Shown: positions 699 through 37,614 of the stretch, in pieces
Layout: the number at the start of each line of letters is the position of its first letter
How positions within the stretch are numbered: position 1 is the first letter of the stretch
DNA from: Candidatus Sumerlaeota bacterium
GTDB lineage: Bacteria > Sumerlaeota > Sumerlaeia > SLMS01 > JAHLLQ01
Assembly: GCA_021772755.1 (NCBI GenBank)
Contig: JAJFLJ010000092.1
Location: 1-54,826 of the forward strand
DNA length: 54,826 nucleotides
Direction: 5' to 3'
The notes under the pieces: generated by a model
The model's database searches: none
Told to the model about the DNA's origin: nothing
The model's input: the letters and a program-made list of their open reading frames with translations, nothing else
Translations under genes and position numbers: made by a program

Positions 699-709
699 GG
701 GGCAGTCCC

Positions 710-1868: not shown

Positions 1869-1875
1869 CGCAGGC

Positions 1876-2577: not shown

Positions 2578-2596
2578 ACGCGCGGAAGCGCCGGCA

Positions 2597-5335: not shown

Positions 5336-5535
5336 GGGATGAGTGGTTGTGCCCTTTCGGGGACGGCGATGGTCTTTGCGCTGCGAACTCCATCCGTACC
5401 GGACCGGGTTTTTCCGGCAACGGTTTGGCGAAATCACGGTCTGGCATTGAGTTCGCCACCGCGGCTCGCAGAGCCTTGCGCGAGGGCCGGAATGCTGGAG
5501 AGACGACTTTGCCCGCCGCAACACGGATTCACCCC

Positions 5536-8149: not shown

Positions 8150-8253
8150 TGGCTCGGGAATCCTGGCCCGCGCACGGGCACCAGACCAAGTGCAATCATG
8201 GCTGGACCCGGGGTCGCCCGGTCCGCCAGGAAACGGGGCAGAGGAGACTTCGC

Positions 8254-12633: not shown

Positions 12634-12705
12634 CGGAGAACCTCTTGCCGGGTGGTTTCGCCCTGTATGGACGAACCGACAGGCTCCCGCAACCTGAAAG
12701 GGCCT

Positions 12706-13563: not shown

Positions 13564-13667
13564 CGGACCCGGTCCGGCGCAGGGCCTCAAGCGGGATGGC
13601 AGTCGTGGTTGCGCATCGGGGCGGGCGGCTGTTGCATGGGGGGCATCGTACCCGAAAGGATCGTCGC

Positions 13668-14570: not shown

Positions 14571-14591
14571 AAACCACCACGGAACGGTGCC

Positions 14592-23511: not shown

Positions 23512-24915
23512 TCAGGCCTTCTTGCGTCGCGTCGACTTCTTCTTCGTCGCCTTCTTGCGCGAGGCGGGCTTCGCGACCGTGCGGTTGCCGGGGGCGAGGG
23601 TCTCGGCCCGGGCGGCGTCCACGAGCGAGTTGTGGGGCGCCTGGGCGCGCTCGGCAACGCGAACCGGAGCGACCAGAAGGCTGTTGGCGCCGATGAAGGC
23701 GCTGTTGCCGACCTCCGTGCGGTGGGTCGAGTTGCCGTCGTAGTTGCACGTCATGGTTCCGGCGGCGATGTAGCAGTCGGAGCCGACGCCTGCGTCGCCG
23801 AGATAGGAGAGATGGGGAACCTGGGCGTCATCGCCGAGATCGGTACGGGCGACTTCCACGAACGTGCCCAGGCGGGAGCGCTTGCGGAGCTTCGTGCCGG
23901 GACGAACGTGGGCATAGGGCCCGATGGTCACGTCGTCCTCGGCGACGGCCTCCTCCACCACCGCGTTGCGTACGCGGACGCGCTTGCCGATGGCGGAGTC
24001 GCGCATCGTGACGGCGGGGCCGATCTCGCAGCCGACGCCGATGGCGGTCCTGCCCTGGATGATCGTGAAGGGATGGATCGTGGTGTCGATGCCGATGGTG
24101 ACGTCGTTGTCGATGTAGGTGGTGGCTGGATCGACGACGGTGACGCCGGCGTCCATGATGCGGTTGAGTATCCGGCGGCGCAGATAGCGTTCGGCCATGG
24201 CCATGTCGCGGCGGCTGTTGACGCCGATGACCTCGGTGGGGTCTTCGGCGACCTGGGCCTCGACCTCCTCGCCGAACTCGTTGAGGATCTCGACGACGTC
24301 GGTAAGGTAGAACTCCTTCTGCGCGTTGTCGCTCCTGACCTTCTTCAGCGCCCGGAGAAGCGCCTTGCCGTCGAAGCAGTAGGTTCCGGTGTTGATTTCG
24401 GATATCTTGACTTCGTAGGTGTTGGTGTCCTTCTCCTCGACGATCTTGCGGACGGTGTCGTCGCGGTTGCGCACGACGCGGCCGTAGCCGGAGGGGTCGT
24501 CGAGCAGGGTCGTGAGAACGGCGCAGGCGGTGTGATGGCTGCGCCGGCGCTGGATGAGGTTGCGCAGGCTCTCGGTCTCGATGAGGGGCGCGTCGCCGCA
24601 CATCACGAGGACGTCGCCATCGTAGCCGGCGAGGTGCTTGCGCACCATCATGACGGCGTGGGCCGTGCCGAGGCGCTCCTTCTGGAGGATGCAGCGGGCG
24701 CGCCTGCCGACGTGGTCGCGGACCATGTCGTGAAGGTGCCCGGTGACGACGTAGATCTGCGAGACGTCGAGCGGTTCGAGCGAGGCCAGGACATGGTCGA
24801 TCATGGCGGTGCCACAGATCGAGTGGAGAACCTTGGGAATCTGGGAGTTCATCCGGGTTCCCATCCCCGCGGCGAGAACGATGGCCACGAGTTTGCGCCG
24901 GTTGCGAGATGCCAT
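23512..24915 (-). CDS. glmU: Bifunctional UDP-N-acetylglucosamine diphosphorylase / glucosamine-1-phosphate N-acetyltransferase GlmU
   Basis: In-frame ATG at 24915. VLAAGMGTRMNSQIPKVLH, GTAHAV, EINTGTYCF, left-handed beta-helix hexapeptide repeats, and a Lys-rich tail. Confidence 0.9.
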   Translation of the reverse strand: MASRNRRKLVAIVLAAGMGTRMNSQIPKVLHSICGTAMIDHVLASLEPLDVSQIYVVTGHLHDMVRDHVGRRARCILQKERLGTAHAVMMVRKHLAGYDGDVLVMCGDAPLIETESLRNLIQRRRSHHTACAVLTTLLDDPSGYGRVVRNRDDTVRKIVEEKDTNTYEVKISEINTGTYCFDGKALLRALKKVRSDNAQKEFYLTDVVEILNEFGEEVEAQVAEDPTEVIGVNSRRDMAMAERYLRRRILNRIMDAGVTVVDPATTYIDNDVTIGIDTTIHPFTIIQGRTAIGVGCEIGPAVTMRDSAIGKRVRVRNAVVEEAVAEDDVTIGPYAHVRPGTKLRKRSRLGTFVEVARTDLGDDAQVPHLSYLGDAGVGSDCYIAAGTMTCNYDGNSTHRTEVGNSAFIGANSLLVAPVRVAERAQAPHNSLVDAARAETLAPGNRTVAKPASRKKATKKKSTRRKKA

Positions 24916-24988
24916 GGGAGAATCCGTGCGGTCGGGTGGGAAGGGCGGCTTGCGCCGGTGCGAGCGTGTAGCCGCAGGCGCGGGGCGT

Positions 24989-25020
24989 GGAAAAGGAAAA
25001 TTCGCGGCGTGGCCGCGAAT
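24989..25020 (-). terminator. Rho-independent terminator closing the unknown-function cluster, 4 nt after the stop of 25025..25447
   Basis: 9-bp stem ATTCGCGGC/GCCGCGAAT (25000-25020) with a 3-nt loop. On the minus strand it is followed by TTTCCTTTTCC. Confidence 0.7.
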
Positions 25021-25024
25021 CGGG

Positions 25025-25447
25025 TCAGGAACCGGCGCCGGGGAACTGGCCGGCCGCCTGGAGCTCGGCCATCTTCTTGGGCGGGATTTCGGCGATGAGG
25101 CGGCCAAGGGCCTTGTTCATTCCGATGAACAGGGTGTGCCACTCGACCTGGATCTTGCCGAGGGTCGCTGCGGGAAGCTCGCGGATATGGGCGAGGGAGA
25201 CCGCCTCCGTCAGGACCTTGAGGATGCCTTCGGCGTCGTCGAAGAAGCCGCGGGCCAGTTCCTGGAACTTGTAGTGGTTGAGGACGAGAAGGCTGACGAC
25301 GCCGGCGAACTCCTCCTCCTCCTGGTCGGTGAAGACGCGCTCCTCCAGATTGTCGTCCGCGAAGAACGTGAAGAACTGCTGCCAGAGGGCCGCGTAGTCG
25401 CGTACGACGGCGATGCGGTTCGTCAACTCGAGGTGTGGATTTGCCAT
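25025..25447 (-). CDS. Hypothetical helical protein, soluble paralog of 29008..29508
   Basis: 140-aa ORF with GC3-rich codons. It shares LW..F..F, LT..VS..H[IL]R.[IL]P and I...WH..FI......G.L with the 29008..29508 product. Confidence 0.7.
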   Translation of the reverse strand: MANPHLELTNRIAVVRDYAALWQQFFTFFADDNLEERVFTDQEEEEFAGVVSLLVLNHYKFQELARGFFDDAEGILKVLTEAVSLAHIRELPAATLGKIQVEWHTLFIGMNKALGRLIAEIPPKKMAELQAAGQFPGAGS

Positions 25448-25465
25448 GTTGTGCGGGGGTTCGCC

Positions 25466-25597
25466 CTACTTCTTTCCGGGTACGAATATCCTGAGTTCGT
25501 AGAAGCAGTACGCGACGAGTGCGACGATGCCGAGAATGATCCACAACTCGAACTTGTGGACGTGGTTCAGGCTCTGGAAGATGTTCAGATTCGGCAT
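25466..25597 (-). CDS. Putative 43-aa single-pass membrane mini-protein (not in the ORF track)
   Basis: My translation: MPNLNIFQSLNHVHKFELWIILGIVALVAYCFYELRIFVPGKK*. It has one clear TM helix, and most codons end in G/C, as in neighbouring genes. It fills the gap between the lipoprotein gene and 25025..25447. Confidence 0.45.
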   Translation of the reverse strand: MPNLNIFQSLNHVHKFELWIILGIVALVAYCFYELRIFVPGKK

Positions 25598-25637
25598 CGT
25601 TCGCAGCGCGCTCCGTCGCTCGTGTCTCTGTCTTTCC

Positions 25638-28600
25638 TCAGTTCATCGCCGAGGGGATGATCTCGCTGGCGCTGACAAGCCGGAAGCGGACCTCGTCGCC
25701 GAAGAACTGGCGCTGCAGGTCGCGCATGATGCGGTTGCTGCCGTTGATGCGGGCGTAGGCGGCGTCGATGAGGCGCTCCGCCTCCGCGTTGGACGCCTCG
25801 TTGAGAATGATGAACTTCTCGAAGTGCACGGCGGCGATGCGGCCCTCGTTGACGGCCTCGATGACGCTTTCGTGCACGCGCACCATGTTGGCGGGCGGGA
25901 CGATCTTCAGCGCCTTCGAGTAGATGCGGTCGACGTCGTCGCGGAACTCGTTGGGGTTGGAGTTGCCGGCGATGGCGACCAGGTTGCCGCGCGAGCCGCT
26001 GCCGAAGGCGAGAGCCTTGAGCTCGGCGGGATCGAGGGCGAGCACGTTGCGGAAGCGGTACTGGGCCAGCTCGTACTCGCCGAAGAGGGCCTCGATGGCA
26101 TCGACGTAGTTTTCCTGGTCGTGGCGGCGCTCGATCTCGTTGACCGAGCGGATGGCGCGGGTCAGCGAGCTGTGGGAGGACTTGTAGAGGCCCTTGCGGT
26201 AGTCGATCTGGGCGAACTTCAGGTCGTCGCGGGCCGTTGTGATCAGCTCGCCGGCGTAGTCCGACGCGCCCATGCCGGCGAAGTAGTCGAGGCGCTCGCC
26301 CTGCTGCCTGGCGACGGTGGCGACCATGTCGTCGGTGGTGTCGAGCACGCCGCGAAGGAAGCCTTCGAGGACGTTGAGTTCCGCCATGATGTAGTCGTAG
26401 TCGTCGATGTTCCAGCGGTTCTGGATGTCGGCGAGTTCGCGGCGAACGTCGATGGATTCGCCGACCTGGAAGTAGTTGATGCCCTGCTTGGTGCCTTCCG
26501 CCAGGTTGGCTTCGATGCGGTCGATGGCCTCGCGGTAGTTGTTGGTCTTGCTGGAGCGTGCGATCGACTCTGCCGAGCGGCGGGCGGAATCGGCCTGGCC
26601 GGCGGAGTCGCCGTAGTCGCCGGACTCGATGAGCCCGAGGGCTTCGCGCGTCCTGGCGCTGGCCTTGCCGAGTCCGCGGCTGTTGTGGTCCCAGCCCCCG
26701 ACAGCCTTCGCGTCGGCGATGGCGGCTTCGGCGCTGTTGATCTTCTTGTAGAGAGCGGCGTTGGCCTGCTCGGAAGCGCGGAGGGCGAGTTCCTCGGCCT
26801 TGAGGTAGTCCTCGCTGCCGAAGAGCGAACGGGCGGAGGCGATCAGATTGCGGGCGCTTTCCAGTTCGCGACCGGCGTAGAGGGCGGCGTCGGCCTGGGT
26901 GGCGCGGCCGAGCGTGGCGTCGGTGGCGGCGATGGCCGACTCGGCCGCCTGGCGGTCCGCCTGGGTCTTGGCGTCGCGGGCGACGCGGGCGGCCTCGTTG
27001 GCGGACTCCAGTGCGAGCTTGAGCCTGTCCTGCTGGAGATCGACTTCGGCGCGGTCGAGAAGCTGCTTCACTTCCGCCAGCTTGTCCGCGCTCATTTCGG
27101 CGGTTCTGCCCCGGGAAATCTCCTCGTAGAGTTCGCGGGCTTCGCGCAGGTCCTCGACGGCGCGGCCGGAAATGCGGCGTGCCATCAGTTCGATGTCGGC
27201 ACGGGCGCCGGCGGCGAGCTGAGTCGCGGCGTAGAAATTCCCGGCGGCGCGCTCGGACTTGACGGACTCGAGGTTGTCGATGCTGCGGGCGAGCTCATCG
27301 GGGGCGTAGACCCGGGCGCCGTCGCGCTCGTAGCGGCTGATGAGGTTGGAGAGTTCGATGACGGCATTGCCGGAAACGACGTCGTAGATGCGGCTGAGGA
27401 TCTGGTCGGCTTCGCGGCCCTGTTCCTGGGCGAGAAGAATGGAACTGCGGTAGCGGCCGTCATCGCGGCGAACGCGGGCCTCCTCGAGGGAGTCGCGGGA
27501 CTGTTCGAGGTCCTTGCCGATCTGAACGCGGCGGGCGGTCTTGGATGCCTCGAAGGGCTGCATGTCGGCGGGAACTTCGGTTCGGGGCTCGTAGATCTGC
27601 TCCATTTCGACGAAGACGGAGTTCGTCTTGTCGAGCTGGTTGCCGGCCACGCGAATCGCCTCGTCGGCGAGAGCGCGGAAGGCGGTCGTGATCTTCGCGG
27701 ACTCCTCCTCGGACTGGCCGAAGTACACTTTGACCTCGTCGAAGGCGGCCTCGGTGTCGGCCTGGCGGATCTGGATCATAAGGGCCAGGATGCCGTCGAG
27801 GACCTCGACGCGCCCCGGAAGGTACTCGCGGGCGCCGGCATCGACGAAGTCGCCGATCTGCGTGCGGACCTTGCGGATGCGGTCGTCGGCGGCGTCGCGC
27901 TTGGTGTTGACGACGAGGACTTCCGCCCTGGGGAGAAGGTCCTTGCTGGAAAGCTCGACGCGGGTGAAGCGGCCCTCGTCGAAGTCCTGGACGAGGTTGG
28001 TCAGCTGGCCGATGACGGCTTCGTAGTCGTCGGGGCGGAACTGCTTGGCGCCTTCGTCGAGGGCGATGGCGAGGAGTTCCTCGATGCGCTGGATGGCTTC
28101 CTTGCCCTTGAGGCGCTGGACGTTGACCAGACCGGTCTCCGCCGCGCTGATGGCTGCGCGGTACTGGTTGGCGGCGAGGATGTAGTCGCGCTGCTCGGTG
28201 GTGATTTCCTCGGCGCGCGTGATGATGTCGCTGACGTTGACGATCGACTCGGGATCGTAGAACTGGCCGTCGGCGGCCTTGAGCTCCTGAAGCTTCTGCT
28301 CCGCGGTGATGCGCTCGCGGTCCGCGTCGTTCTTCATGGGCGCGATCGCGGTATCGACTTCGTCGGAGACCATGCGGCAGAGCCTGATGACCTCGCGGTA
28401 CTTGTTTTCGGTTCGCGCGGCGTCGGCTTCGTCGCGCAGCGACTTGATTCTGGCGTAGCGGTTGGGGTCGACGCGGGAAACGGCGTTGTTGTCGGCGACG
28501 CGGATGTCGTCCTCGGCCTTGTTCCAGAGACGGCGCGCCTCCTCGGTTTCGACGGTGGCAAGGGTGGACTCGGCCTTTTCCTTGGCCTGGCGGGCGGTAT

Positions 28601-28838
28601 CGAAGGCCTGGGCGTCGGCGCCGGACCCGAGGTAGCCGCTGGTCTGGTCGATGAGCGAGCGAATCTGCTCGAGATCGTCGGGAGCGTGAAGCTGGGCGTT
28701 GAGGTCCTCGAGCTGCGCGACGATTTCGCGGCTCTTGTTGAGCGCCACCTTGGCCCGCTGGGCCTTACAGGCGGTCAGTCCCATCGCGAGGACGAGGATC
28801 ATCAAAGCCAATCGTACTGTCGAAGCGTGGGAACGCAT
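25638..28838 (-). CDS. 1066-aa all-helical lipoprotein made of about 8 DUF4398-like repeats
   Basis: GGAGG lies 5 nt upstream of the ATG at 28838. The lipobox is LAMGLTAC. The recurring unit is [FY]-x-[PA]-x-[DE]-[LY]...L..A......Y..A...A..A. Examples: VYAPDELARSIDNLESVKSERAAGNFYAATQLAAGA; LYAGRELESARNLIASARSLFGSEDYLKAEELALRA; DYAGELITTARDDLKFAQIDYRKGLYKSS. Confidence 0.75.
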   Translation of the reverse strand: MRSHASTVRLALMILVLAMGLTACKAQRAKVALNKSREIVAQLEDLNAQLHAPDDLEQIRSLIDQTSGYLGSGADAQAFDTARQAKEKAESTLATVETEEARRLWNKAEDDIRVADNNAVSRVDPNRYARIKSLRDEADAARTENKYREVIRLCRMVSDEVDTAIAPMKNDADRERITAEQKLQELKAADGQFYDPESIVNVSDIITRAEEITTEQRDYILAANQYRAAISAAETGLVNVQRLKGKEAIQRIEELLAIALDEGAKQFRPDDYEAVIGQLTNLVQDFDEGRFTRVELSSKDLLPRAEVLVVNTKRDAADDRIRKVRTQIGDFVDAGAREYLPGRVEVLDGILALMIQIRQADTEAAFDEVKVYFGQSEEESAKITTAFRALADEAIRVAGNQLDKTNSVFVEMEQIYEPRTEVPADMQPFEASKTARRVQIGKDLEQSRDSLEEARVRRDDGRYRSSILLAQEQGREADQILSRIYDVVSGNAVIELSNLISRYERDGARVYAPDELARSIDNLESVKSERAAGNFYAATQLAAGARADIELMARRISGRAVEDLREARELYEEISRGRTAEMSADKLAEVKQLLDRAEVDLQQDRLKLALESANEAARVARDAKTQADRQAAESAIAATDATLGRATQADAALYAGRELESARNLIASARSLFGSEDYLKAEELALRASEQANAALYKKINSAEAAIADAKAVGGWDHNSRGLGKASARTREALGLIESGDYGDSAGQADSARRSAESIARSSKTNNYREAIDRIEANLAEGTKQGINYFQVGESIDVRRELADIQNRWNIDDYDYIMAELNVLEGFLRGVLDTTDDMVATVARQQGERLDYFAGMGASDYAGELITTARDDLKFAQIDYRKGLYKSSHSSLTRAIRSVNEIERRHDQENYVDAIEALFGEYELAQYRFRNVLALDPAELKALAFGSGSRGNLVAIAGNSNPNEFRDDVDRIYSKALKIVPPANMVRVHESVIEAVNEGRIAAVHFEKFIILNEASNAEAERLIDAAYARINGSNRIMRDLQRQFFGDEVRFRLVSASEIIPSAMN

Positions 28839-29007
28839 CAATGCCTCCAATACGCATGCGCGCGATCGGCCAAGCGCCGATAGTCTGCGGGAATCTCTCC
28901 TTCGATCAAGCCCTTGTTCCGCCCTGGCGGATTCGGACGCAACGAAGAAATGCCTTCAAAATCCGTTGATTCATCACGATTTGCCCTCGTTTCGCCCCAT
29001 GTCCGAA

Positions 29008-29508
29008 CTAGCCGACCAGGCCCATGAAGACCGCCGCCGCGATGGCGATTCCGATCACCACCGCCACGACGATCCCGATGACCATGGGGGTCGGGCCCTT
29101 CTTCTTCTTCGTCTTACCGCCGACGGGAGGGGGCTGGTAGCCCTCCGAGAGGAATTTCAGGGCTCCGACGGTCCGGCTGAGCCGAATGAACACGCTGTGC
29201 CAATCCTTGCGGATCGCCTTCTGGTCGCTCTTGGGAATATTCCTCAGGTGGGAAACGGAGACGCACTTGGTGAGCAGTTCGCGGATGGTCTTCTCGCCGT
29301 AGTCGATGTTGCCGACGGCGCGAATGCGCTCGCTGAGGGCGCGCAGGTTCTTGGAGACCGAGCTCTTGACCTCCAGGAAGTCCGTTTCGTCGGCGGCGGA
29401 GACCTCTGTCTCGGAGTATCCCACCAGCATGAAGCGCTTGAAGCTCAGCCACAGTTCGAGAGTGTTCTGGACGAGCGTCAGATTCTCGTCGATCGCCTGC
29501 TGTTTCAT
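29008..29508 (-). CDS. Hypothetical tail-anchored helical protein (paralog of 25025..25447 with a C-terminal KKKK + TM helix)
   Basis: In-frame ATG at 29508. Helical domain as in the paralog, then GGKTKKKKGPTPMVIGIVVAVVIGIAIAAAVFMGLVG. Confidence 0.7.
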   Translation of the reverse strand: MKQQAIDENLTLVQNTLELWLSFKRFMLVGYSETEVSAADETDFLEVKSSVSKNLRALSERIRAVGNIDYGEKTIRELLTKCVSVSHLRNIPKSDQKAIRKDWHSVFIRLSRTVGALKFLSEGYQPPPVGGKTKKKKGPTPMVIGIVVAVVIGIAIAAAVFMGLVG

Positions 29509-29598
29509 TGGTGAGACCGGCTTCCCGCGTGGTTCGAATGGCAAACAAATGTGCCCCCATGCTTCGGGGGCACAAGTCAAAGATCGTCAGGCGGGGCG

Positions 29599-30678
29599 CT
29601 ACTTTCCTCCGCCGCCGCCGGCACCGCCGAAGTAGGAGCTGCTGGCGGCGTCGTTGCCGGGAATGTTGTTCGCGCCGAAGGCGTTGCGAACACCGTCCTG
29701 GACTCCGTTGCCGCCTGGCCCGCCGTTCTGGCCCTGCCCGCCTGCGACGTCCGCGTTGGGCGGGAAGAATGCCGCCGGGATGTCCTTGAGGGGGGGAAGA
29801 GGCGGGGTGGGCATGTAGGTTTCGTAGAAGTCCCAGCCCTGGACGTCGGACTCGGAGGGATCGACGCGGAAGTCCTGGAGGAACTTCTCGGCCCAGCGAC
29901 CGAGCTTCTCGTCGCGATCACGCTCGAGATCGACCATCTGCGGAACGCCGGCGAGGGGGTCGGTGGAGGCCACGAGGACGTTGAAGAAGTCGTTGGGTTC
30001 GACGGCTTCCAGACTGCGCAGGCCCTGGATGATGCGGGTCATGACGAGGTGCGCCTCGGGGCTCATCACGTCGTCGCGAAGAGTGACGTTGGTGTAGACG
30101 AAGTCGTTGGCCTTGTAGTCCATGCCCGTCTTGCCGTCGTCGTAGTAGGTGTCGCGAAAGGTGTCGAGGACGCGGACCTTGACGGCGTCGTCGAGCATCT
30201 GGCCGGTCACGCGGCAAACCACGCGCGTTCCGTAGACGGCTTCGACCTTGGGAATCTGGGGTGCCTGAAAGCCCTGCTGGCCGGGCTGGGCGCCAAACGC
30301 ACCGCCGCCGAAGGGGTCGCCACCACCGGCGAATCCGCCACCACCGAAGGGATCGCCGCCGCCCGCAAACCCACCACCGCCAAAGGGGTCGGCTCCGCCA
30401 CCTGCAAACCCGCCGCCGCCAAAGGGATCGGCACCACCGCCGCCAAAGGGGTCGGCAAAGGGATCGTTGGCTGCCACGCCGCGGGCGCGGTCCACGTATC
30501 CGGCTCCGCCGCCGGGGCCCGTGGAGGCTCCGCTCAGGGTGTCCAGTGCGGCGGGGTCCGCCAAACCGGCGAATCCGCCTTGGGCGAAGGCCTCGCCGGA
30601 GAGGGCCAAGAGAGCCATTCCGCCGAGAATTCCGGCTCCGAGGACTGAAAATGCTGAAGTTCTAGCCGTTCCGATCAT
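29599..30678 (-). CDS. Secreted protein with DPFGGGGFAGGG tandem repeats, a central globular domain and a Gly/Asn-rich tail
   Basis: GAGGAGG lies 7 nt upstream of the ATG. Signal peptide MIGTARTSAFSVLGAGILGGMALLALSGEAFAQ. Repeats: DPFADPFGGGGADPFGGGGFAGGGADPFGGGGFAGGGDPFGGGGFAGGGDPFGGGAFG. Confidence 0.8.
   Translation of the reverse strand: MIGTARTSAFSVLGAGILGGMALLALSGEAFAQGGFAGLADPAALDTLSGASTGPGGGAGYVDRARGVAANDPFADPFGGGGADPFGGGGFAGGGADPFGGGGFAGGGDPFGGGGFAGGGDPFGGGAFGAQPGQQGFQAPQIPKVEAVYGTRVVCRVTGQMLDDAVKVRVLDTFRDTYYDDGKTGMDYKANDFVYTNVTLRDDVMSPEAHLVMTRIIQGLRSLEAVEPNDFFNVLVASTDPLAGVPQMVDLERDRDEKLGRWAEKFLQDFRVDPSESDVQGWDFYETYMPTPPLPPLKDIPAAFFPPNADVAGGQGQNGGPGGNGVQDGVRNAFGANNIPGNDAASSSYFGGAGGGGGK
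30295..30465 (-). repeat. Coding tandem repeat, about 36-nt period (about 4.5 copies) encoding DPFGGGGFAGGG
   Basis: Visible on the + strand as reiterated ccgccgaaggggtcgccaccaccggcgaatccgccaccaccgaagggatcgccgccgcccgcaaaccc... Confidence 0.8.
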
Positions 30679-30751
30679 GGGCGTGCCTCCTCGTTCGATC
30701 CATCCCCAAGGTGATCCCGAGGGGGCAAGCTGTCAACAGGAACGGCTTCCT

Positions 30752-31948
30752 CTAGCGGCTGGCGAGGCTGAACTCGGGGTCGATGACCTGAAGCTGCTTT
30801 TCGACGGAATCGATCAGGAGAAACAGGTCGTCGGACAGTTGGTTCAGCGCGGGGGCCAGACCCCGCACGGATTCATCGCCGGTCCGGCTGCAAAGAAGGG
30901 CCAGGTCCATGCCCGCCTTCTCGAATTCGCCCTTCGATTTCAGCGCGGTCGCGAGCAGGGTCGCACTCTCCTCGTCCGCCATGGCGCTCTCGTAGCCGTC
31001 CGCGTTCACCTTCTCCACCAGGAGCAGGATCGAATCGGCGACACTCGTCGCCGAAGCGCCGGCCGCGGCGATGAGTTCCTTCGCGCGCGCGCCCTGGGGG
31101 GTGTCGGGCAGGTTCGCGAGATCGATGTCCGTGTTCACCCCTTCGAAGGCCGCAGGGACGATCACGCGGAACTCGGACGCCTCTCCGGTTTCTGGTGAAA
31201 CGTCGATCTGTCCGATCTCGATCTGCTCCTTCGAACCGTACATTTCGGCCATTTCGGCCCGGCGTTTGCCCATGTGGGCGGCGAGAGAGGATTCGGTTCT
31301 CTTGCCGGTCACGGCGACGATGCGGAGAAGTTCGACGCGCTCCTGAAGTTCCCGCTGCGGGAATTCATAGGTAACCTTGGCGACCTGGTCGATTCGCCAC
31401 GTTCCGACGTGGAAGGCCACGGCACGGGGAAAGCCGGGGGACTTGAAGACGATGGTGGCGTCCTCCCAGTAGAAACCCGAGGCGTTCTGTACGCTCATTT
31501 CGAGCTGAATGTTCGTGTCGTCGGGAAATCGGCGGCGATCGACGCGGAAGGGGTAGAGCTCCGGTGCCGGCGGCTCGGCGGGAATTGTCCCGGTCCAGAT
31601 GCCCTTGGAGACGGCGACGGCGGCGGTGCGTGCCACCGATTCGGTGTCGGCATTCGCCCTCGGGGGCGGAGGGCCGGAAGGACGCTTGGGCGGCGGACCA
31701 ACGGTCCTCGGCGTGGTTCCCGTCGTCTCGGAGTCTCCTCCCGCGGTGGAGCGGCCGGTCGCCGCGCCGGCATCGGCCAGAACCAGGTTGCCGGTGTCGG
31801 TGATGGTCTCCATCAGCTTCGCGGTGGTTTCCTCGTCCATGCCGGCGAGGGCACGGACTTCCGCCGGTCTCAGAACGAACCAGCCACAGAGGGCTGTGAC
31901 CGACAGCAGATCGATGAAGAGCGTGATCCAAACGAGGTTTTTTTTCAC
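30752..31948 (-). CDS. Hypothetical membrane-anchored protein (N-terminal TM, Pro-rich linker, beta-rich domain, helical C-terminus)
   Basis: GTG start. TM segment LVWITLFIDLLSVTALCGWFVL. Linker TPRTVGPPPKRPSGPPPPRANA. I recognise no family. Confidence 0.65.
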   Translation of the reverse strand: MKKNLVWITLFIDLLSVTALCGWFVLRPAEVRALAGMDEETTAKLMETITDTGNLVLADAGAATGRSTAGGDSETTGTTPRTVGPPPKRPSGPPPPRANADTESVARTAAVAVSKGIWTGTIPAEPPAPELYPFRVDRRRFPDDTNIQLEMSVQNASGFYWEDATIVFKSPGFPRAVAFHVGTWRIDQVAKVTYEFPQRELQERVELLRIVAVTGKRTESSLAAHMGKRRAEMAEMYGSKEQIEIGQIDVSPETGEASEFRVIVPAAFEGVNTDIDLANLPDTPQGARAKELIAAAGASATSVADSILLLVEKVNADGYESAMADEESATLLATALKSKGEFEKAGMDLALLCSRTGDESVRGLAPALNQLSDDLFLLIDSVEKQLQVIDPEFSLASR

Positions 31949-32060
31949 GGGTTCCCAAGTGTGCCCGGGACGGCTGAACGCCTCCGGGCCGGGTATCGTC
32001 GGGCGTCTGGCGGATGGGACGAGAGGGCCCCGCCCGCGTCGAGGAGAATTTGCCGCGGAC

Positions 32061-32387
32061 CTATTCCTCCAGGTCCTCGAGGGCGTCGAGAAGCTGGTCC
32101 TTTTCGCGGCTGCTGACGGCGATGCGTTCCATCCTGAGCCGCTTCAGGTATTCCAGCCGCCGCTGGCGGTATTCCTCGGCGGACATTCCCGTCGAGACGG
32201 AGTCGCACCCGGCGGCGATATCCTCGAACATGCGCTCGATGAAGGGAATGCACCACCCGCATCCCGTGCCGGCGCTGTAGCACTCGCTGCACTGGGAGAC
32301 GACCTGTGGGTCGTTGAGGCGGATGAACTTCTCGATCTTGTGGGCGGGAACGTGGAAGCAGACGCAGAGGTCGTCGGAGGGTTCCAT
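32061..32387 (-). CDS. BFD-like [2Fe-2S]-binding domain protein
   Basis: CVCFHV...QCSECYSAGTGCGWCIPFI gives the four-Cys pattern of bacterioferritin-associated-ferredoxin-like domains. It is followed by a charged helical tail. Confidence 0.7.
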   Translation of the reverse strand: MEPSDDLCVCFHVPAHKIEKFIRLNDPQVVSQCSECYSAGTGCGWCIPFIERMFEDIAAGCDSVSTGMSAEEYRQRRLEYLKRLRMERIAVSSREKDQLLDALEDLEE

Positions 32388-32431
32388 GACGGTGGCGGCG
32401 AAACAGCAGGAGGGCCCGGGCGGGGCGGCTT

Positions 32432-33010
32432 CTACTCCTCGGCCGCCTGCGTTCTCGCTTCCTCCAGAACCTCGGCGATGTCTTCCTGCTCGGGTTCGAT
32501 GTCCAGGGAGAGTTCCCAGGCTTCGAAGGCCGCCTTGACGTTTCCCGCGGCGTAGTGCAGCGTTCCCTGACTGTTGAGCGCGGGGTAGTATTCGCCGTCC
32601 AGGCCGAGAGCCGTGTCGAAGGCCCCGAGGGCTTCCTCGAAGAGGGAGGTCAGTTCGTCGTCCTCTTCCCAGGAGGGGTTGCCGGTGGCACCGTCGGAGA
32701 AGAGGAGCATTGCTGTGTGTCCGAGGTGGAAGATCGCCTCGGCGCTTTCGTTGTAGCGTTCGGCGGCCTCGCGGAACGTTTCGAGGGCCTCCTGGTAGAG
32801 CCCCTCTTCGATGAGGGCTTCGCCCTCGTCGATGAGTTCCTCGAGTTCGTCCTCCTCGTCGGACTGGATGTCGTCGCCGTCGGCGAAATCCTCCTCGTCG
32901 TCGAAGAGTTCATCGTCGTTCTGCTCGAAGCCGCCGCCGGTCAGGCCGTTCTCGGACTCGTCGAGCCACTCTTCGTCTTCTTCCGCCTCTTCCCAGCCGG
33001 GAGGGATCAT
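32432..33010 (-). CDS. Highly acidic TPR-like repeat protein
   Basis: In-frame ATG at 33010. The N-terminal ~60 aa are almost entirely D/E (EEAEEDEEWLDESE...DDEEDFADGDDIQSDEEDELEELIDEGE). TPR-like helices follow (LYQEALETFREAAERYNESAEAIFHLG; NVKAAFEAWELSLDIEP). Confidence 0.65.
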   Translation of the reverse strand: MIPPGWEEAEEDEEWLDESENGLTGGGFEQNDDELFDDEEDFADGDDIQSDEEDELEELIDEGEALIEEGLYQEALETFREAAERYNESAEAIFHLGHTAMLLFSDGATGNPSWEEDDELTSLFEEALGAFDTALGLDGEYYPALNSQGTLHYAAGNVKAAFEAWELSLDIEPEQEDIAEVLEEARTQAAEE

Positions 33011-33289
33011 GATACACGACCTCGATCGCACGGTTTCTTGTCGGGTCAGTTGTGCCCTTTGGGGTCCGCTATAGATGCGGCGGTGTCGAAAGCAAGCACA
33101 ATCGGGACGGTGAATTCGGTTTTTTCCGCCCGGAAAACGAACCCGTTGGAAGTGCGGGAAAAAACACGCCGCGAGACTTGACATCGCGCCCGCCAACGCG
33201 ACGCTGCTATCGTCGTTCGCGGTTCGAATTCACGAGGGCGCGACCGTCGCCGCAATGAATACCGGCGACCCCGGCCCGTAGGAAACCCC

Positions 33290-33562
33290 ATGACACTCGC
33301 GATCTCCATCCTCGCCGGCCTGGCGTTCTTCGTGATCGTGGGGAGACTGGCGTTCTTCGACAGCTTCGCGGATTTCGCGTGGGGAGTCCTGCCGCTGGGG
33401 ATTCTGGCGGCGATCGGCATTCTGACGGGTCTCGATGGCGACACGGGCGGCCACTGGCCGTCGCTCAAGGCGCTGGTCGTGGCACTTCTGTCGCTTGCCT
33501 TCGGCTGGCAGTTCCACGTCCACGCGGCCGGAGCCGTCGCGGCGTTCCTCGGCGGAGGGTGA
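33290..33562 (+). CDS. Small hypothetical membrane protein (3 predicted TM helices)
   Basis: AGGAAA lies upstream of the ATG. The sequence is hydrophobic (MTLAISILAGLAFFVIVGRLAFF...VLPLGILAAIGILTGL...LVVALLSLAFGW). Its stop abuts the stop of the convergent MscS gene. Confidence 0.5.
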   Translation: MTLAISILAGLAFFVIVGRLAFFDSFADFAWGVLPLGILAAIGILTGLDGDTGGHWPSLKALVVALLSLAFGWQFHVHAAGAVAAFLGGG

Positions 33563-35398
33563 CTATTCCCCCCCGCCGCCGCCGACGCGCTCGCTCATGT
33601 ACTGGTCGAGATCGACGTCGGGGGGAATCTGGATCCGGACGGGGTCGGGCTTTCGGACGCGCGGTCCGAATTCCTGGCGTACGAGCTTGCGCGCGGAGAA
33701 CTGTCCCTTCGACCGGGCGTCCTGCGCCGTGGCCGGCTTGTCCGAGTGGTCGGGCGTGTTCCGGGCGATGTGGATCGTCTGGGTCGGGAAGGCGAATTCG
33801 ATGCCGAGTTCCCTGGCGAGACGCAGAATGTCGAGGAAGAGACGGTGGCGCTCGCGGAGTTCGGTGCCCCAGTCGGGAGCCTCGAAGAAGACGTACAGGA
33901 GGATGTTGAGCGACGCGGCGCCGAACTCGTTGGCGTAGATGTGGTAGTAGTCCTTGCGCGTGTAGGGGTGAAGGCGAACGAGCTCGCAGAGACCCTCGCA
34001 GAAGGCCTCGATCTTCTCGGGCGGGGTGTCGTAGGTCACGCAGAGGGTGGTCTTCCACCGGCGGTAGCGGCGCGCGCCGTAGTTGTCGACGTACGCCGTG
34101 ATGAGCATGGAGTTGGGAACGGTGATGAGCGAGTTGTAGAAGGTGCGGACGCGGGTGCTGCGAAGGCCGACGGTTTCGACCGTGCCGTCGACGCCGTTCT
34201 CGATGGTGATCCAGTCGCCGACGGAGAACGGACGGTCGATGAGGATCGTGAGGGATCCGAAGATGTTGGAGACGGTGTCCTTCGCGGCGAGGGCGAAGGC
34301 GAGACCACCGAGACCGAGGCCCGCCAGCAGGCCGCTGATGTTCACGCCGACGTTGGAGGCGACGAAGACGATTCCGAAGGCGACGACGAATATCTTGGCG
34401 ACGCGGCCAAGAAAGGGGACGATCAGGTCGTCCATCTTCGATTCGGTACCGGCCGCCTTTTCGAGAAAGACGCGTTCGCCGGTATCGACGCCCTTGTAGG
34501 CGGCCCAGACGAAGCTGACGGCGGCGAGGAACTTCACCGCCACGAGGACGATCGCGGCGATTCCCGCGGGGAGAAGCAGCAGGCCGAGACCGGCCGCCCA
34601 GACGCCGGCCATGGCAAGCAGGCCCAGGGGGCGGAGAGCGGCCTTCCGGTCCTCTTTGGAGATGTTGAGCGCGAGCCTGCGCTCGAAGACCCCGGAAAGC
34701 AGCGTGAGGAGGAAGACGAACAGGCGGTCGGCCGCCACGCCGATGGCGATCAGGATCAGGAGGCCAAGCCACTGCCAGGATTCGAGAAGAATGGAATCGC
34801 GCCGGAGTTGTTCGGGAACGCGGGAGCGAACCCACTGGCCCGGTGTCATGGCGACGGTCGCGCCGACTCCCTCGACGACGGCCCGGTCCTCGACCAGGTC
34901 CCAGAGCCTGTCGAGGGACTCGATGGTGTCGGTGCTGAATTTCCATTCGCCGCGTTCGTTCCGGACAAGCTCGATGACGCCGACGCCGGGAAAGCGCTCG
35001 AGCACGTAGCGGTCGGACTTCCCCACCTGGCGGTCGACCTCCTCGATATCGACGTACTCGACGCGGTCGATGACGCTCTTGAGGGTCTTCGCCGCGTCGA
35101 TGCGCTGGTGCTCGCCGAGGAGCGAGAGCGTGCCGGAGAAGTCCATCGTCGCCAGCGCGCCGGACTCGATGGAGGGGGGGCGGCCGGTCTCGTCGTCGCC
35201 GAACGAGTCGAAGAAGGTCTCGAAGGTGGTTCCGGGCGTCGCAAGCCTCGGGTCCGCATCCGACCTGGCGGTTTCCCGCGTGTCGGAGTCTTCGGAGCCG
35301 GAAGCCGCACCCAGGCCGGCGGGAATCTGGGCGCCGGCAGGTCCGAAAGCCAGGAGCGAAAGCAGAAGAAGGAACAGAAACCGGAAGCGGGAGGTCAT
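33563..35398 (-). CDS. Mechanosensitive ion channel (MscS family) with a large N-terminal periplasmic domain
   Basis: In-frame ATG at 35398. Signal peptide MTSRFRFLFLLLLSLLAFGPAGAQ. MscS core FGSLTILIDRPFSVGDWITIENGVDGTVETVGLRSTRVRTF. Confidence 0.85.
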   Translation of the reverse strand: MTSRFRFLFLLLLSLLAFGPAGAQIPAGLGAASGSEDSDTRETARSDADPRLATPGTTFETFFDSFGDDETGRPPSIESGALATMDFSGTLSLLGEHQRIDAAKTLKSVIDRVEYVDIEEVDRQVGKSDRYVLERFPGVGVIELVRNERGEWKFSTDTIESLDRLWDLVEDRAVVEGVGATVAMTPGQWVRSRVPEQLRRDSILLESWQWLGLLILIAIGVAADRLFVFLLTLLSGVFERRLALNISKEDRKAALRPLGLLAMAGVWAAGLGLLLLPAGIAAIVLVAVKFLAAVSFVWAAYKGVDTGERVFLEKAAGTESKMDDLIVPFLGRVAKIFVVAFGIVFVASNVGVNISGLLAGLGLGGLAFALAAKDTVSNIFGSLTILIDRPFSVGDWITIENGVDGTVETVGLRSTRVRTFYNSLITVPNSMLITAYVDNYGARRYRRWKTTLCVTYDTPPEKIEAFCEGLCELVRLHPYTRKDYYHIYANEFGAASLNILLYVFFEAPDWGTELRERHRLFLDILRLARELGIEFAFPTQTIHIARNTPDHSDKPATAQDARSKGQFSARKLVRQEFGPRVRKPDPVRIQIPPDVDLDQYMSERVGGGGGE

Positions 35399-35589
35399 GA
35401 TGCGGGGAAGCCTGGAGAGATGATGCGTCGCGGGGCGACGCCCGGACCCCATCGACCTGCCGCCGCGAGGGGCAACCGGGGATTCCCGGTCCCGGTGCGG
35501 ACGGAGGGATTTCGCGACCGGAATCCTGTTGCGGGGCAATGCGCGTCGCCGCCACCGTTCTCGTCAACGAGACTCGAAAGACGAGGTAA

Positions 35590-36387
35590 ATGGTTCGTCA
35601 TACTCGCGACCTCAAGGTCCTTCTGGCTGCGGACTCTCTCCAGGAATCGGAGACGATCCGAAGTACCCTGAAGAATCACGTTCCCCGGGGCACGAAAGTC
35701 GAGATTCTGGCGTCCGTGGCGGCGGTGCGCGAGCGGCTGGCGTCCGACACGGGGTGGTACGACGCGGCGCTCGTCGCCTGGGATCTGGACGACGGACAGG
35801 GCTATCAGCTGTTTCCGCCGCTGCGGGCCGCGTGCAAGAACAACGGTCGCACGGCTCCGTCGCTGTTTCTGGTGACGGGGCACGGACAGGGTTCCCCCGA
35901 AGAAGTGACTGGCGTTCTGCGCCAGCACCCCGACGTCGTTCTGATCGAGAAGCCGTACTTCGTCGAGGATGTCTGCTCGACGGTGGTGGAGGCGATTCTG
36001 CCGCGTTCGCTCGACAGCGACGGGTACTACGGTCTGCGGCTGGTGGATCTGATCCAGGCGTACACGCTCCCCCGGCGGAGCGCGACGCTGCGCATCTTCA
36101 CGCCGGACGGGCGCATCGGGGTCGTTGCGCTTCGCGAGGGCCATCTCGTGCACGCCACCATCGGCGCGGAGCAGGGGCTGGAGGCGCTGGGCGAGCTGAT
36201 GGCCACGCGGCGGGGCCGCATCCGTCTGGACCGCGGCTGCACGACGGCGCTGCGAACGATCAAGATTCCCACGGAGCAGGCACTGATCCATATCGCGCGC
36301 TACATCGACGAGGTGGAGCGGGACTCGCTGATCGAGGACACCCCGCCGGATATCGAGGGAGAGAACGGCCGGAAAACGGGCTACTGA
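35590..36387 (+). CDS. Response-regulator receiver domain fused to a DUF4388 domain
   Basis: The receiver-like N-terminus has KVLLAADS, LVAWDLDDGQG, LVTGHG and IEKP. The C-terminal LRLVDLIQAYTLPRRSATLRIFTPDGRIGVVALREGHLVHATIGAEQGLEALGELM matches the DUF4388 pattern. Confidence 0.7.
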   Translation: MVRHTRDLKVLLAADSLQESETIRSTLKNHVPRGTKVEILASVAAVRERLASDTGWYDAALVAWDLDDGQGYQLFPPLRAACKNNGRTAPSLFLVTGHGQGSPEEVTGVLRQHPDVVLIEKPYFVEDVCSTVVEAILPRSLDSDGYYGLRLVDLIQAYTLPRRSATLRIFTPDGRIGVVALREGHLVHATIGAEQGLEALGELMATRRGRIRLDRGCTTALRTIKIPTEQALIHIARYIDEVERDSLIEDTPPDIEGENGRKTGY

Positions 36388-36394: not shown

Positions 36395-37528
36395 CTAGGC
36401 GCCGGGCGCGCCATCCTTCGATATGCGCACTTCCAGGGGAGAGAGCGTGTCGAGATGGACGTCGCGCTGCGGGAAGGCGATGACGATGCCGTTCTCGCGG
36501 CAGAGTTCGTCGATGCGGAAGCGGATATCGCTCTTGATGCGGCGCTGTTCGAGAAACGATTCGACGGTGACCCAGAAGAACACGAGGAACGCGAGGGAGT
36601 TGTCGCCGAACTCCTCGAAGAGGACGTCGGGCGTGGGCGAGGCATCGACGCGCGGGTGTTCCTCCACGGCCTGGCGGAGCAGCTTCTCGAAGAGGCGCGT
36701 GTCGGAGCCGTAGGCGATGCCGACGGAGACCTCGGTGCGCACCTGGCGGTCGGTCAGGGTCCAGTTGATGATGCGGCTTTCGAGAAGCTGGCGGTTGGGG
36801 ACGAGAAGATCGACGTTGCCCGGCATGGCGAGCCGCGTGCTGCGGGGTCCGATTTCCTCGACGCGGCCGTAGTCGCCCTCGAGATCGATGAGGTCGCCCT
36901 CGCGAATGGGCTTTTCGGTCATCAGGATAATGCCGCTGATGAAGTTGGCGAGGAGTTCCTGGCCGCCGAAACCGGCGGCGATGGCGATGGCGCCGCCGAG
37001 AAAGGCGAAGATCGTGAGGGGGATGCCGGCGAACTGGAGGGCCCAGAGGGCGAAGACCGAAGCCAGGATGGCGTGGACGATCTTCTCGAGGAAGAGCGAG
37101 TAGCTGCGCTGGACGCGGAAGCGCGTGAAGAGGCGCTTGCGGACGGCGGTGGACATGCGCTTCGCGACCCAAAGCCCGATCAGAAGAAGCAGAACCGCGA
37201 CGATGATCTTGAGCAGCGTGAGGTCGGTACCCTGAACGCTGAAGAAAGGGGTGTTCAGGATCCTGTCCGCGATTCGGCCGATCGCGGAGCCGGCGGCGAC
37301 CTGGTGGATTTCTTCCTCCAAGCCGGCCAGCGCCTCTCCCACGGGGTAGGTCGCGGTTCCGGACTCGGTTTCCTCCGCACGGGCTTCGACCGCATCCGAC
37401 TCGGCCGCACCGACCGCCACGTCCAGCGCCGGGCTCTCCTGTGCGGCGCCGACTCCCGTGAGCAGGACAAGGGCCGCAAAAGCGAACCCGCGGAGCAGCG
37501 CGGCGAGGATCGTTCGGGGTGTTCTCAT
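36395..37528 (-). CDS. Mechanosensitive ion channel (MscS family)
   Basis: In-frame ATG at 37528. Signal/TM MRTPRTILAALLRGFAFAALVLLTGVGAAQ. Core LANFISGIILMTEKPIREGDLIDLEGDYGRVEEIGPRSTRL. Confidence 0.85.
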   Translation of the reverse strand: MRTPRTILAALLRGFAFAALVLLTGVGAAQESPALDVAVGAAESDAVEARAEETESGTATYPVGEALAGLEEEIHQVAAGSAIGRIADRILNTPFFSVQGTDLTLLKIIVAVLLLLIGLWVAKRMSTAVRKRLFTRFRVQRSYSLFLEKIVHAILASVFALWALQFAGIPLTIFAFLGGAIAIAAGFGGQELLANFISGIILMTEKPIREGDLIDLEGDYGRVEEIGPRSTRLAMPGNVDLLVPNRQLLESRIINWTLTDRQVRTEVSVGIAYGSDTRLFEKLLRQAVEEHPRVDASPTPDVLFEEFGDNSLAFLVFFWVTVESFLEQRRIKSDIRFRIDELCRENGIVIAFPQRDVHLDTLSPLEVRISKDGAPGA

Positions 37529-37571
37529 CTTGAGGCGACGATGCCTTCCGGGAACGCCCCCGTCGCAAGGG

Positions 37572-37614
37572 CAATCGCCCGATTGACACATTTCCGCGTG
37601 TCCCCCATCAATCG
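37572..37614. promoter_or_regulatory. CAATCG-CC-CGATTG palindrome plus a third CAATCG copy in the MscS / sigma-54-activator divergent intergenic region
   Basis: Read directly: gCAATCGccCGATTGacac (37572-37585) and ccatCAATCGggc (37609-37614). A TTGACA hexamer overlaps the palindrome. Confidence 0.25.

Follow-up and report, generated by a model that had tools for sequence, protein, structure and literature searches.

Background

Elongated helical proteins that are anchored by a lipid or in the membrane are known to set or span the periplasm; Braun's lipoprotein (Lpp) and Omp-alpha of Thermotoga are examples of this kind. The proteins of the DUF4398 family (PF14346), for which no function is known, consist of a single all-helical domain and have about 120-150 amino acids (aa). 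TonB and TolA combine an N-terminal transmembrane anchor with a Pro-rich basic spacer and a folded C-terminal part, and in syntaxins an N-terminal cytoplasmic helical bundle precedes a C-terminal transmembrane anchor. Long arrays of helical bundles are found in vinculin, alpha-catenin, talin and spectrin, and the FG-repeat nucleoporins carry FG and GLFG units. These are the described systems with which we compare here a cluster of eight genes (g1 to g8) from Candidatus Sumerlaeota, carried by contig JAJFLJ010000092.1 of assembly GCA_021772755.1. The whole stretch of DNA that was analysed, 54,826 nucleotides (nt) of the forward strand, is referred to as the window. Sumerlaeota is a globally distributed phylum known to date from metagenome-assembled genomes (MAGs), and no description of its cell envelope was found in a literature search.

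An initial annotation of the window described g1-g8 as a single cell-envelope system of exported proteins, with no recognisable enzyme and no match to a named system. From the analyses presented in this work we conclude that the cluster is formed by a five-gene core, g4-g8, to which two layers of clade-specific genes have been added. The core is a real module, deeply conserved, limited to Sumerlaeota within the present sampling, and with no detectable relationship to described systems. Its five genes very probably constitute one functional unit, and this conclusion is better supported than any specific mechanism. The most economical mechanism, which we propose tentatively, is a platform in the inner membrane, formed by g5, g7 and g8, that arranges g6 and g4 into a periplasmic scaffold. 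The novelty resides in the five-gene module and in the family of domains to which g5 and g8 belong.

Results and discussion

A conserved five-gene core

The DNA around relatives of g6, g5, g8 and g4 was fetched, and all eight genes were mapped in these loci (designated with L-numbers) using hidden Markov models (HMMs) built in this analysis. In all 13 loci that are long enough, i.e. the window, L001-L006, L008, L013, L014, L021, L023 and L026, the genes g4-g5-g6-g7-g8 appear in the same order and orientation. L007 carries g4-g5-g6 up to the end of the contig, and g6-g7-g8 were found at the ends of six further short metagenome contigs. This arrangement is maintained over a range of G+C content from 0.45 to 0.66, and with g6 proteins that are as little as 39% identical to that of the window. 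The co-directional cluster postulated in the initial annotation is therefore conserved across related genomes, and its homologs, which could have been scattered, lie together and in the same order in each of the related genomes that were examined.

The three upstream genes show a narrower distribution. Only in the window, L008, L002, L004, L005 and L001 is g3 found beside the core, and it is not there in the deep lineages; g1 and g2 are restricted to the window, L008, L002, L004 and L005. The view of a single eight-gene system was thus not upheld: g4-g8 form an operon-like conserved module, g3 was added in one clade and g1 and g2 in a sub-clade, and none of these three genes belongs to the conserved module.

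The eight minus-strand open reading frames (ORFs), labelled g1 to g8 in the order of transcription from position 33010 down to 25025, are present at the coordinates initially assigned to them (Table 1), and are separated by 44, 112, 73, 90, 169, 40 and 18 nt. All eight are real genes, given that other genomes carry orthologs with conserved protein sequences. A crude check of codon positions, which covered g1-g6, gave a third-position GC of 0.76-0.90 for these genes.

Table 1. Features of the g1-g8 cluster (positions in the window)
Feature	Position	Strand	Layer	Description
g1	32432..33010	-	accessory	acidic TPR protein, 192 aa, isoelectric point (pI) 4.1, predicted cytoplasmic
g2	32061..32387	-	accessory	BFD-like [2Fe-2S] domain protein, 108 aa, predicted cytoplasmic
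g3	30752..31948	-	accessory	398 aa, GTG start
g4	29599..30678	-	core (first gene)	secreted protein, 359 aa
Tandem repeat in g4	30294..30439	-		Tandem Repeats Finder: period 36 nt, 4.0 copies, 73% matches; encodes DPFGGGGFAGGG units
Terminator-like hairpin between g4 and g5	29550..29574	-		TGTGCCCCC-GAAGCAT-GGGGGCACA, then TTTGTTTG
g5	29008..29508	-	core	tail-anchored protein, 166 aa
g6	25638..28838	-	core	lipoprotein, 1066 aa; tandem helical repeats and C-terminal helical domain
g7	25466..25597	-	core	single-pass membrane mini-protein, 43 aa
g8	25025..25447	-	core (last gene)	soluble protein, 140 aa; paralog of the g5 helical-bundle domain
Intrinsic-terminator-like hairpin after g8	24989..25021	-		GATTCGCGGC-CAC-GCCGCGAATT, then TTTTCCTTTT

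The genes that flank the core differ from lineage to lineage. The module is flanked by glmU-prs-rplY in the window's clade, and by a gene encoding a glycosyltransferase of family GT9 and a PMT_2-like gene in L001 and L003, and in L013 ftsK is located immediately downstream; the flanks carry hflX, with PGM, MBL and deacetylase genes upstream, in L021 and L026, clpX/lon in L006, and argS/trkH in L023. It could be argued that the five genes have no common function, are neighbours by inherited synteny, and that the system is an artefact of grouping adjacent hypothetical genes, given that g1, g2 and g3 are not universally linked to the rest, that a hairpin inside the cluster parts g4 from g5, and that 169 nt separate g5 from g6. 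This idea is hardly credible in view of the fact that the order and adjacency of the core are kept in 13 of 13 loci while every flank changes; moreover, g4/g5 and g7/g8 lie within 3-12 nt of each other or have overlapping reading frames in some lineages, and the paralogs g5 and g8 bracket g6 and g7.

Regarding its taxonomic distribution, a pattern scan of the GTDB species representatives with a narrow g5 alignment retrieved four loci, all of them from Sumerlaeota, and the IMG/VR viral contigs contained no relative of the module. Within this sampling the module is specific to Sumerlaeota, and we regard it as vertically inherited. L007 (GCA_016215675.1) is labelled 'Candidatus Poribacteria' at NCBI, yet its g4 and g5 products are 56-57% identical to those of the window; probably this label is outdated or the contig was mis-binned. 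In L014, a contig from ENA (1-9300 and 11250-15385), the module adjoins Mu-like phage genes (Portal_Mu, Gp36), and g6 and g8 are split over several reading frames, so that this copy is either in decay or affected by errors of a long-read assembly. A phage origin, suggested by these neighbours, was rejected because of the absence of relatives on viral contigs and of the chromosomal flanks of all the other loci.

The eight proteins and their ortholog sets were scanned against Pfam, NCBIfam and PADLOC, and only TPR, Fer2_BFD and a sub-threshold DUF4398 were obtained; none of the eight proteins matched a PADLOC defence model, and no enzyme, transporter, ATPase or regulator domain was detected in any product with these three resources. 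An Rfam scan of positions 24000-34000 did not reveal any RNA family. The absence of a recognisable enzyme is thereby confirmed with Pfam and NCBIfam, no product matches a characterised family of unrelated function, and the lack of a match to a named system holds for the products other than the TPR and BFD proteins. Outside the accessory genes, none of the parts showed the complete set of features that defines any of the named families considered; TPR (g1) and BFD (g2) were the families recognised. Comparisons with hhalign gave no relationship between g3 and g5/g8, g3 and g6, g3 and g4, or g5/g8 and g6. The five-gene block, whose parts can be assigned to no known family, may well encode an envelope structure that defines the Sumerlaeota lineage. 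It is novel in kind, yet candidate phyla contain many other conserved clusters without assigned function, and if it were only a clade-specific set of structural proteins, its value would lie mainly in annotation.

The repeat lipoprotein g6

The product of g6 carries the lipobox LTAC, and its Cys24 is invariant across the orthologs. When the protein was aligned with itself using hhalign, significant off-diagonal shifts of 72, 143, 216 and 288 residues were observed. In agreement with this periodicity, the AlphaFold2 model is all helical (predicted local distance difference test, pLDDT, 85.2; predicted TM-score, pTM, 0.37) and shows about 12-13 copies of a unit with a period of 72 residues, composed of three helices of 43, 4 and 19 residues; these copies are followed by a distinct and highly conserved C-terminal helical domain (residues ~960-1056). 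The low pTM is expected for an elongated multi-domain chain. The proposal of a lipoprotein rod made in the initial annotation is consistent with this confident all-helical model of around 13 repeats of 72 residues.

Homologs of g6 are scarce, since a search of 5.8 billion protein clusters yielded only 11; their identity is 39-81% and their length 1057-1074 aa, and those with a name come all from Candidatus Sumerlaeota or Sumerlaeia MAGs. The protein is among the largest lipoproteins in Sumerlaeota genomes. Loci L026 (6122-9835) and L021 (5702-9835) carry a longer g6 of 1237 aa, which exceeds the range just mentioned by ~170 residues, roughly two repeats; the g4 protein of this lineage is likewise longer (388 aa). 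In L013, g6 appears as two genes, and a biological split was rejected given that the interruption corresponds to an assembly gap (a run of X).

The family that comes closest to g6 is DUF4398. Both share a lipobox, an all-helical content, and a unit of similar length (72 residues in g6 and 78 positions in the model), and weak matches fall on several repeats of g6: in the window, the domain was found on three stretches with 19.5 bits (E=0.0015), below the gathering cut-off of 27.9 bits, and the deep g6 orthologs scored 15.7-15.8 bits. Of the 11 homologs, 6 have PF14346 in their precomputed Pfam annotation, and at the encoding loci the match is faint. In short, g6 has the lipoprotein signal and a helical unit of nearly 78 residues, but it does not reach the gathering cut-off, and it differs from DUF4398 by its ~13 tandem copies and by an unrelated C-terminal domain. 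A literature search on DUF4398 and Sumerlaeota retrieved nothing relevant to the cluster, and DUF4398 was mentioned only in passing.

A sequence profile search of the PDB with g6 gave no significant match; in the searches of this type, which covered g5/g8, g4, g6 and g3, no E-value was lower than 0.04. For its model, a fold match was accepted with a Foldseek E-value of 1e-3 or less and a TM-score of ~0.5 or more; the best match in the PDB was vinculin (6nr7; E=3.3e-3, TM-score 0.09, 11% identity), which is not significant. In vinculin, alpha-catenin, talin and spectrin, as in g6, helical bundles are strung into long arrays, but the structures cannot be superposed in a meaningful way and g6 is a lipoprotein exported by a bacterium; the resemblance is generic. 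With Lpp and Omp-alpha the relationship is one of functional analogy only, with no similarity in sequence or fold: g6 exceeds Lpp in length by a factor of 10-20 and differs from a simple coiled coil, and no peptidoglycan-linking or SLH domain was detected in it with Pfam or NCBIfam.

The secreted protein g4

g4 is present in every complete locus. Its product has a cleavable signal peptide that ends in AFA/Q, and from an alignment of eight orthologs a conserved N-terminal region with the motifs QGGFAG..A.DTLSG and LDRAR could be distinguished. The middle part consists of a disordered linker rich in Gly, Phe and Pro, followed by a conserved domain of ~165 aa that contains the acidic motif YYDDG..G.D..A.D..YTNV, and the protein ends with a Pro-rich stretch and an aromatic C-terminal tail. 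Neither Pfam nor PDB searches with g4 gave a match.

In the window, g4 includes six DPF motifs, and the composition of its DPFGGGGFAGGG units resembles that of the FG-repeat nucleoporins. In contrast with those proteins, g4 is exported and its repeats are limited to a clade: the DPF/FG units are found in the window, L001-L005 and L007, and are absent from the deep orthologs of L006, L013 and L026, in which a Pro/Ala/Gly linker without DPF or FG repeats takes their place. Hence, conservation among orthologs does not extend to the repeats, and the DPFGGGG mesh that had been postulated as part of the system did not stand as a general feature. The FG-like repeats are the most striking feature of the cluster, but they are not conserved.

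g5, g8 and g7: a helical-bundle domain and its proposed anchors

In g5, a helical bundle (residues 3-121) is followed by a polybasic Gly/Lys-rich linker and a C-terminal transmembrane segment (~141-161; residues 143-161 by hydropathy); in the AlphaFold2 model (pLDDT 89.9, pTM 0.72) the linker is non-helical and of low confidence. The bundle is predicted to face the cytoplasm. The ortholog in L006 has no transmembrane segment and ends with KKKKKR, a tail that likewise suggests a location on the cytoplasmic side of the membrane. The product of g8 has no hydrophobic segment and is also predicted to be cytoplasmic. The paralogy between g8 and the bundle of g5, already noticed in the initial annotation, was verified with blastp (28% identity, E=5e-12) and hhalign (96.8%), and several positions, W, F, E, F, WH and G, are invariant and common to both proteins.

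The mini-protein g7 shows a conserved N(H/Y)V(H/Y)(K/R)xE motif ahead of its transmembrane segment (residues 20-38) and a basic C-terminus. It was found in two public assemblies whose annotation had omitted it, and the g7 HMM detects it in L006, L013, L014 and the metagenome loci, in each case with g6 on one side and g8 on the other. The distance between g7 and g8 is 18 nt in the window and 3-20 nt elsewhere, and in view of this short spacing we infer that g7 plus g8 represent a split version of the 'domain plus anchor' arrangement seen in g5.

The domain shared by g5 and g8 is not restricted to the module. An exhaustive HMM search identified 518 representatives at E<=1e-3, of which 324 remain at E<=1e-10; the predicted bundle is therefore an unannotated family, without a Pfam model, of at least 518 clusters at 50% identity. 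Family members (P0055-P0204; L012, 8001-9101) come in several architectures, i.e. single-domain, tandem with two or three copies, tail-anchored, fused to TM2, or with the domain at the N-terminus followed by a transmembrane segment and an outer domain of ~180 aa. The latter corresponds to g5-like forms of ~340 aa, whose C-terminal domains are unrelated to g3 according to hhalign. The source names include Sumerlaeota and Limisphaerales, and the tandem forms come from Limisphaerales and from sequences with the label 'Binatia'. The family thus extends beyond the module, given that a triple-repeat gene of Limisphaerales has an unrelated neighbourhood. In a tandem protein from Limisphaerales a weak TipAS match (23.7 bits, for a cut-off of 23.8) spans the repeat boundary. 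The family is a candidate for a new Pfam entry that could be curated now, and it is open to study in more tractable bacteria.

Neither g5 nor g8 gave a significant match in a sequence profile search of the PDB, and for the g5 model nothing was obtained with Foldseek below E=0.05. The top matches were the Habc domain of syntaxin-1A (1ez3; E=0.053, TM-score 0.36/0.48, root mean square deviation 18.7 Å, 10% identity) and sensor domains of chemoreceptors, all of which are generic bundles. g5 and the syntaxins have in common a cytoplasmic N-terminal bundle and a C-terminal anchor; however, the Habc match is not significant, no SNARE motif lies between the bundle and the transmembrane segment of g5, and again the resemblance is generic.

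These characteristics of the domain also bear on a different explanation, a system for trans-membrane sensing or signalling in which g6 and g4 would detect the state of the envelope or a ligand, and g5 and g7 (and g3 where present) would relay the signal to the g5/g8 bundles, which in turn would bind a partner in the cytoplasm or let it go, in the manner of anti-sigma or adaptor domains. The modularity of the family is typical of signalling adaptors, the form with an N-terminal domain, a transmembrane segment and an outer domain of ~180 aa has the layout of an anti-sigma factor, and the W, E and WH positions are invariant. In addition, four-helix sensor domains (Tar/Tsr, QseE) are among the best structural neighbours of g5, albeit not significant, and in the window's clade a TPR and a [2Fe-2S] protein are encoded upstream. 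Nonetheless, the module is not consistently adjoined by a gene for a sigma factor, a kinase, a response regulator or any other output, no anti-sigma family of Pfam was matched, and a lipoprotein of 1066 aa with ~13 repeats and a strong ribosome-binding site would be an odd sensor. We consider this explanation somewhat unlikely.

The accessory proteins and the flanking genes

In g3, an alignment of five orthologs revealed an N-terminal transmembrane segment (residues 8-26) and a C-terminal helical region; between them lie a basic, Pro-rich linker of variable sequence and a conserved domain of ~100 aa with the motif LYPF..RR.FP...N.SG..W. The five orthologs had no Pfam match, and no match was found in the PDB. 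In L001 (GCA_020444065; 4808-8109) the g3 ortholog is located between the genes for the large and the small subunit of an aconitase-family enzyme (LeuC/LeuD-like), with an overlap between its stop codon and the beginning of the gene for the small subunit; an aconitase-family small-subunit gene is also found directly upstream of g4 in L003.

The other two accessory proteins have no hydrophobic segment in a hydropathy scan. As initially proposed, g1 is an acidic TPR protein that passes the Pfam cut-offs of TPR_16 (33.6 bits, cut-off 32.7), TPR_2 (32.4, cut-off 27) and TPR_14 (27.6, cut-off 23.5). To class a protein as BFD-like, a PF04324 match at the cut-off and the pattern C-x-C-x(30-35)-C-x2-C were considered; g2, which had also been described as BFD-like, has both, with 29.7 bits for Fer2_BFD (cut-off 26) and the cysteines C8-x-C10-x32-C43-x2-C46 conserved in four aligned orthologs, for which ligation of a [2Fe-2S] cluster is predicted.

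The layout of g3 and the identity of the genes around the core are relevant for two additional explanations. One of them is that the module is an accessory of envelope biogenesis, tethering or transport, which connects the inner membrane with the peptidoglycan or the outer membrane, or participates in the export or assembly of a lipopolysaccharide or glycan component, rather than being a free-standing scaffold. In L003 the core continues after 17 nt into the GT9 gene and a large PMT_2/ArnT-like gene, the same GT9/PMT_2 neighbours are present in L001 and, a few genes off, in L002 and L005, and in other lineages glmU, an LpxA-like gene, a LysM deacetylase and a CDP-alcohol phosphatidyltransferase adjoin the module. 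The organization of g3, with its anchor, Pro-rich spacer and C-terminal domain, recalls TonB and TolA, and the proteins of the DUF4398 family are lipoproteins according to their Pfam description. However, the glycosyltransferase neighbours are absent in L006, L013, L021, L023 and L026, and the products of the module lack MCE, AsmA-like, OmpA-like, LysM, SLH, TonB_C, ExbBD/TolQR, ABC or any other transport or peptidoglycan-binding domain. In particular, no TonB_C or TolA_C match was found in the five g3 orthologs, and no MotA_ExbB, ExbD or TolQR genes are located beside the Sumerlaeota loci. An accessory role of this kind is thus unlikely.

The other explanation assigns the module to cell division or morphogenesis, with g5 and g8 tethered to the membrane and connected, either at the septum or over the length of the cell, with structural proteins of the periplasm. 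The ftsK gene next to the core in L013, the presence of glmU and other wall-precursor genes in several lineages, and the ZipA/FtsN-like layout of g3 (bitopic, with a Pro-rich linker and a globular end) would fit with this idea, and a helical bundle with a tail anchor could serve as an adaptor to the cytoskeleton. Given that the adjacency to ftsK occurs in one lineage only, that the products have no similarity to divisome or elongasome families, and that the loci do not show a dcw-cluster context, we regard a role in division as quite improbable.

Hairpins and ribosome-binding sites

The hairpin with a T-tract that was initially reported to close the cluster is present. It begins 3 nt past the g8 stop codon, and its stem (25021-24999) has 10 pairs, six of them G-C, with a dG of -22 kcal/mol; glmU starts at position 24915, 74 nt beyond it. 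A G+C-rich hairpin with a U-tract immediately after the stop codon was taken as the mark of an intrinsic terminator, and on this basis the element is a putative terminator. A hairpin and a T-run after g8 are also present in L002, L004, L005 and L001; in L003, g8 is separated by just 17 nt from the GT9 gene.

A second hairpin, missed in the initial annotation, is located between g4 and g5, 24 nt past the g4 stop codon; it has 10 pairs, seven of them G-C, and scored at least as high as the hairpin after g8. A strong stem recurs at the same position, with different sequences, in L004 (~9200-9235), L007 (~8112-8142) and L001 (~9260-9292), and L005 has a GC-rich stem after g4. The hairpin is missing in L006 and L023, where there is no room for it given that g4 and g5 are only 12 nt apart in the former and have overlapping reading frames in the latter. 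Its conservation argues for differential expression or for two transcripts in the window's clade. The stem-loop may act as a partial terminator, or as an element that stabilises the mRNA, setting the ratio of g4 to g5-g8, and it could raise the expression of g4 relative to the downstream genes. Together with the 169-nt gap between g5 and g6, this hairpin makes either one or two transcripts possible.

Ribosome-binding sites were compared by their duplex energies in nine lineages. g6 is preceded by a GGAGG-type site in all nine (-9.2 to -10.8 kcal/mol), and g4 by a strong site of the same type in seven (-8.3 to -13.5 kcal/mol), with weaker values in L003 (-5.9) and L026 (-6.5). For g5 and g8 the values range from +1.0 to -7.9 kcal/mol, and in most lineages these sites are weaker than those of g4 and g6, L026 being an exception with respect to g4. 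These values suggest, albeit weakly, that the module yields mostly g4 and g6, with g5, g7 and g8 as minor products.

A possible arrangement across the inner membrane

The targeting signals initially assigned to g3, g4, g5, g6 and g7 were borne out by the hydropathy scan and by the orthologs. However, the description of the products as exported proteins applies only in part: it stands for g3, g4, g6 and probably the N-terminus of g7, and fails for g1, g2, g8 and the bulk of g5, which are predicted to be cytoplasmic. Accordingly, the g5 domain and g8 (plus g1 and g2 in the window's clade) are assigned to the cytoplasm, g4, g6 and g3 to the periplasm, and g5, g7 and g3 are the bridges between both sides. 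Since about half of the parts face the cytoplasm, and the topology signals are kept in the orthologs, the module is predicted to span the inner membrane.

In the arrangement that we propose, g6 and g4 would be made in larger amounts and would together form a scaffold in the periplasm or the outer envelope, a stoichiometry that the ribosome-binding sites suggest. g6 would have a structural role as an elongated array of ~13 DUF4398-like helical repeats, and could be held by its lipid in either the inner or the outer membrane; g4 would dock through its conserved N-terminal motif, and would contribute a globular domain in addition to its disordered linker rich in Gly and Pro. A low-abundance platform in the inner membrane would nucleate the scaffold, position it, or couple it to the cytoplasm, presumably through physical interaction between the parts. 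This platform would hold two copies of the same cytoplasmic helical-bundle domain, one in g5, retained at the membrane by its own tail anchor, and the other in g8, probably retained by the adjacent mini-protein g7. In the clade that carries it, g3, with its transmembrane anchor, Pro-rich spacer and periplasmic domains, would act as an extra strut.

Several observations are in favour of this arrangement. The g5 domain recurs with other anchors, as shown by the TM2 fusions, by the forms with a transmembrane segment and an outer domain, and by the polybasic tail, which agrees with a membrane-spanning module. The 72-residue period and the low pTM of g6 fit an elongated shape, and the narrow range of its length in 11 homologs (1057-1074 aa) also supports a structural protein. 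In addition, none of the products has an enzyme, transporter, ATPase or regulator domain, and envelope-related genes are frequent in the neighbourhood (glmU, LpxA-like, GT9, ArnT-like and LysM deacetylase). Other observations weigh against it. The matches of g5 and g6 in Foldseek are only generic bundles, so that the fold is silent on function; the strength of a ribosome-binding site is a weak proxy for protein abundance; and the flanks are mostly housekeeping genes that are inconsistent between loci. Furthermore, the invariant W, E and WH residues of the g5/g8 domain would fit a ligand-binding or signalling domain equally well, and the family member of Limisphaerales is found in an unrelated context. 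A more elaborate version, in which rods of g6 decorated by g4 with a cohesive Gly/aromatic mesh would form an undescribed envelope substructure, nucleated by the g5/g8 domain as a general cytoplasmic adaptor for single-pass assemblies, is very improbable.

Other features of the window

Upstream of g1 there is a gap of 552 nt (33011-33562) that includes, on the plus strand, an ORF for a hydrophobic product of 90 aa (33290-33562; third-position GC 0.85), which abuts the stop codon of an MscS-like gene (33563-35539). This gene and a second member of the MscS family (36395-37591), both on the minus strand, flank a DUF4388 (PATAN-like) gene (35590-36387), and the next gene after this group encodes a response regulator of the sigma-54 activator type (37648-39072). 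In another region of the window, a minus-strand gene (9487-12633) encodes a secreted protein of 1048 aa that has no Pfam match and contains three long internal repeats, each with the motif W-D-x-G-G-x-D-N-x-W-x-T-P-E-N-W at the start and an acidic DSTGDSETLVLQE segment at the end.

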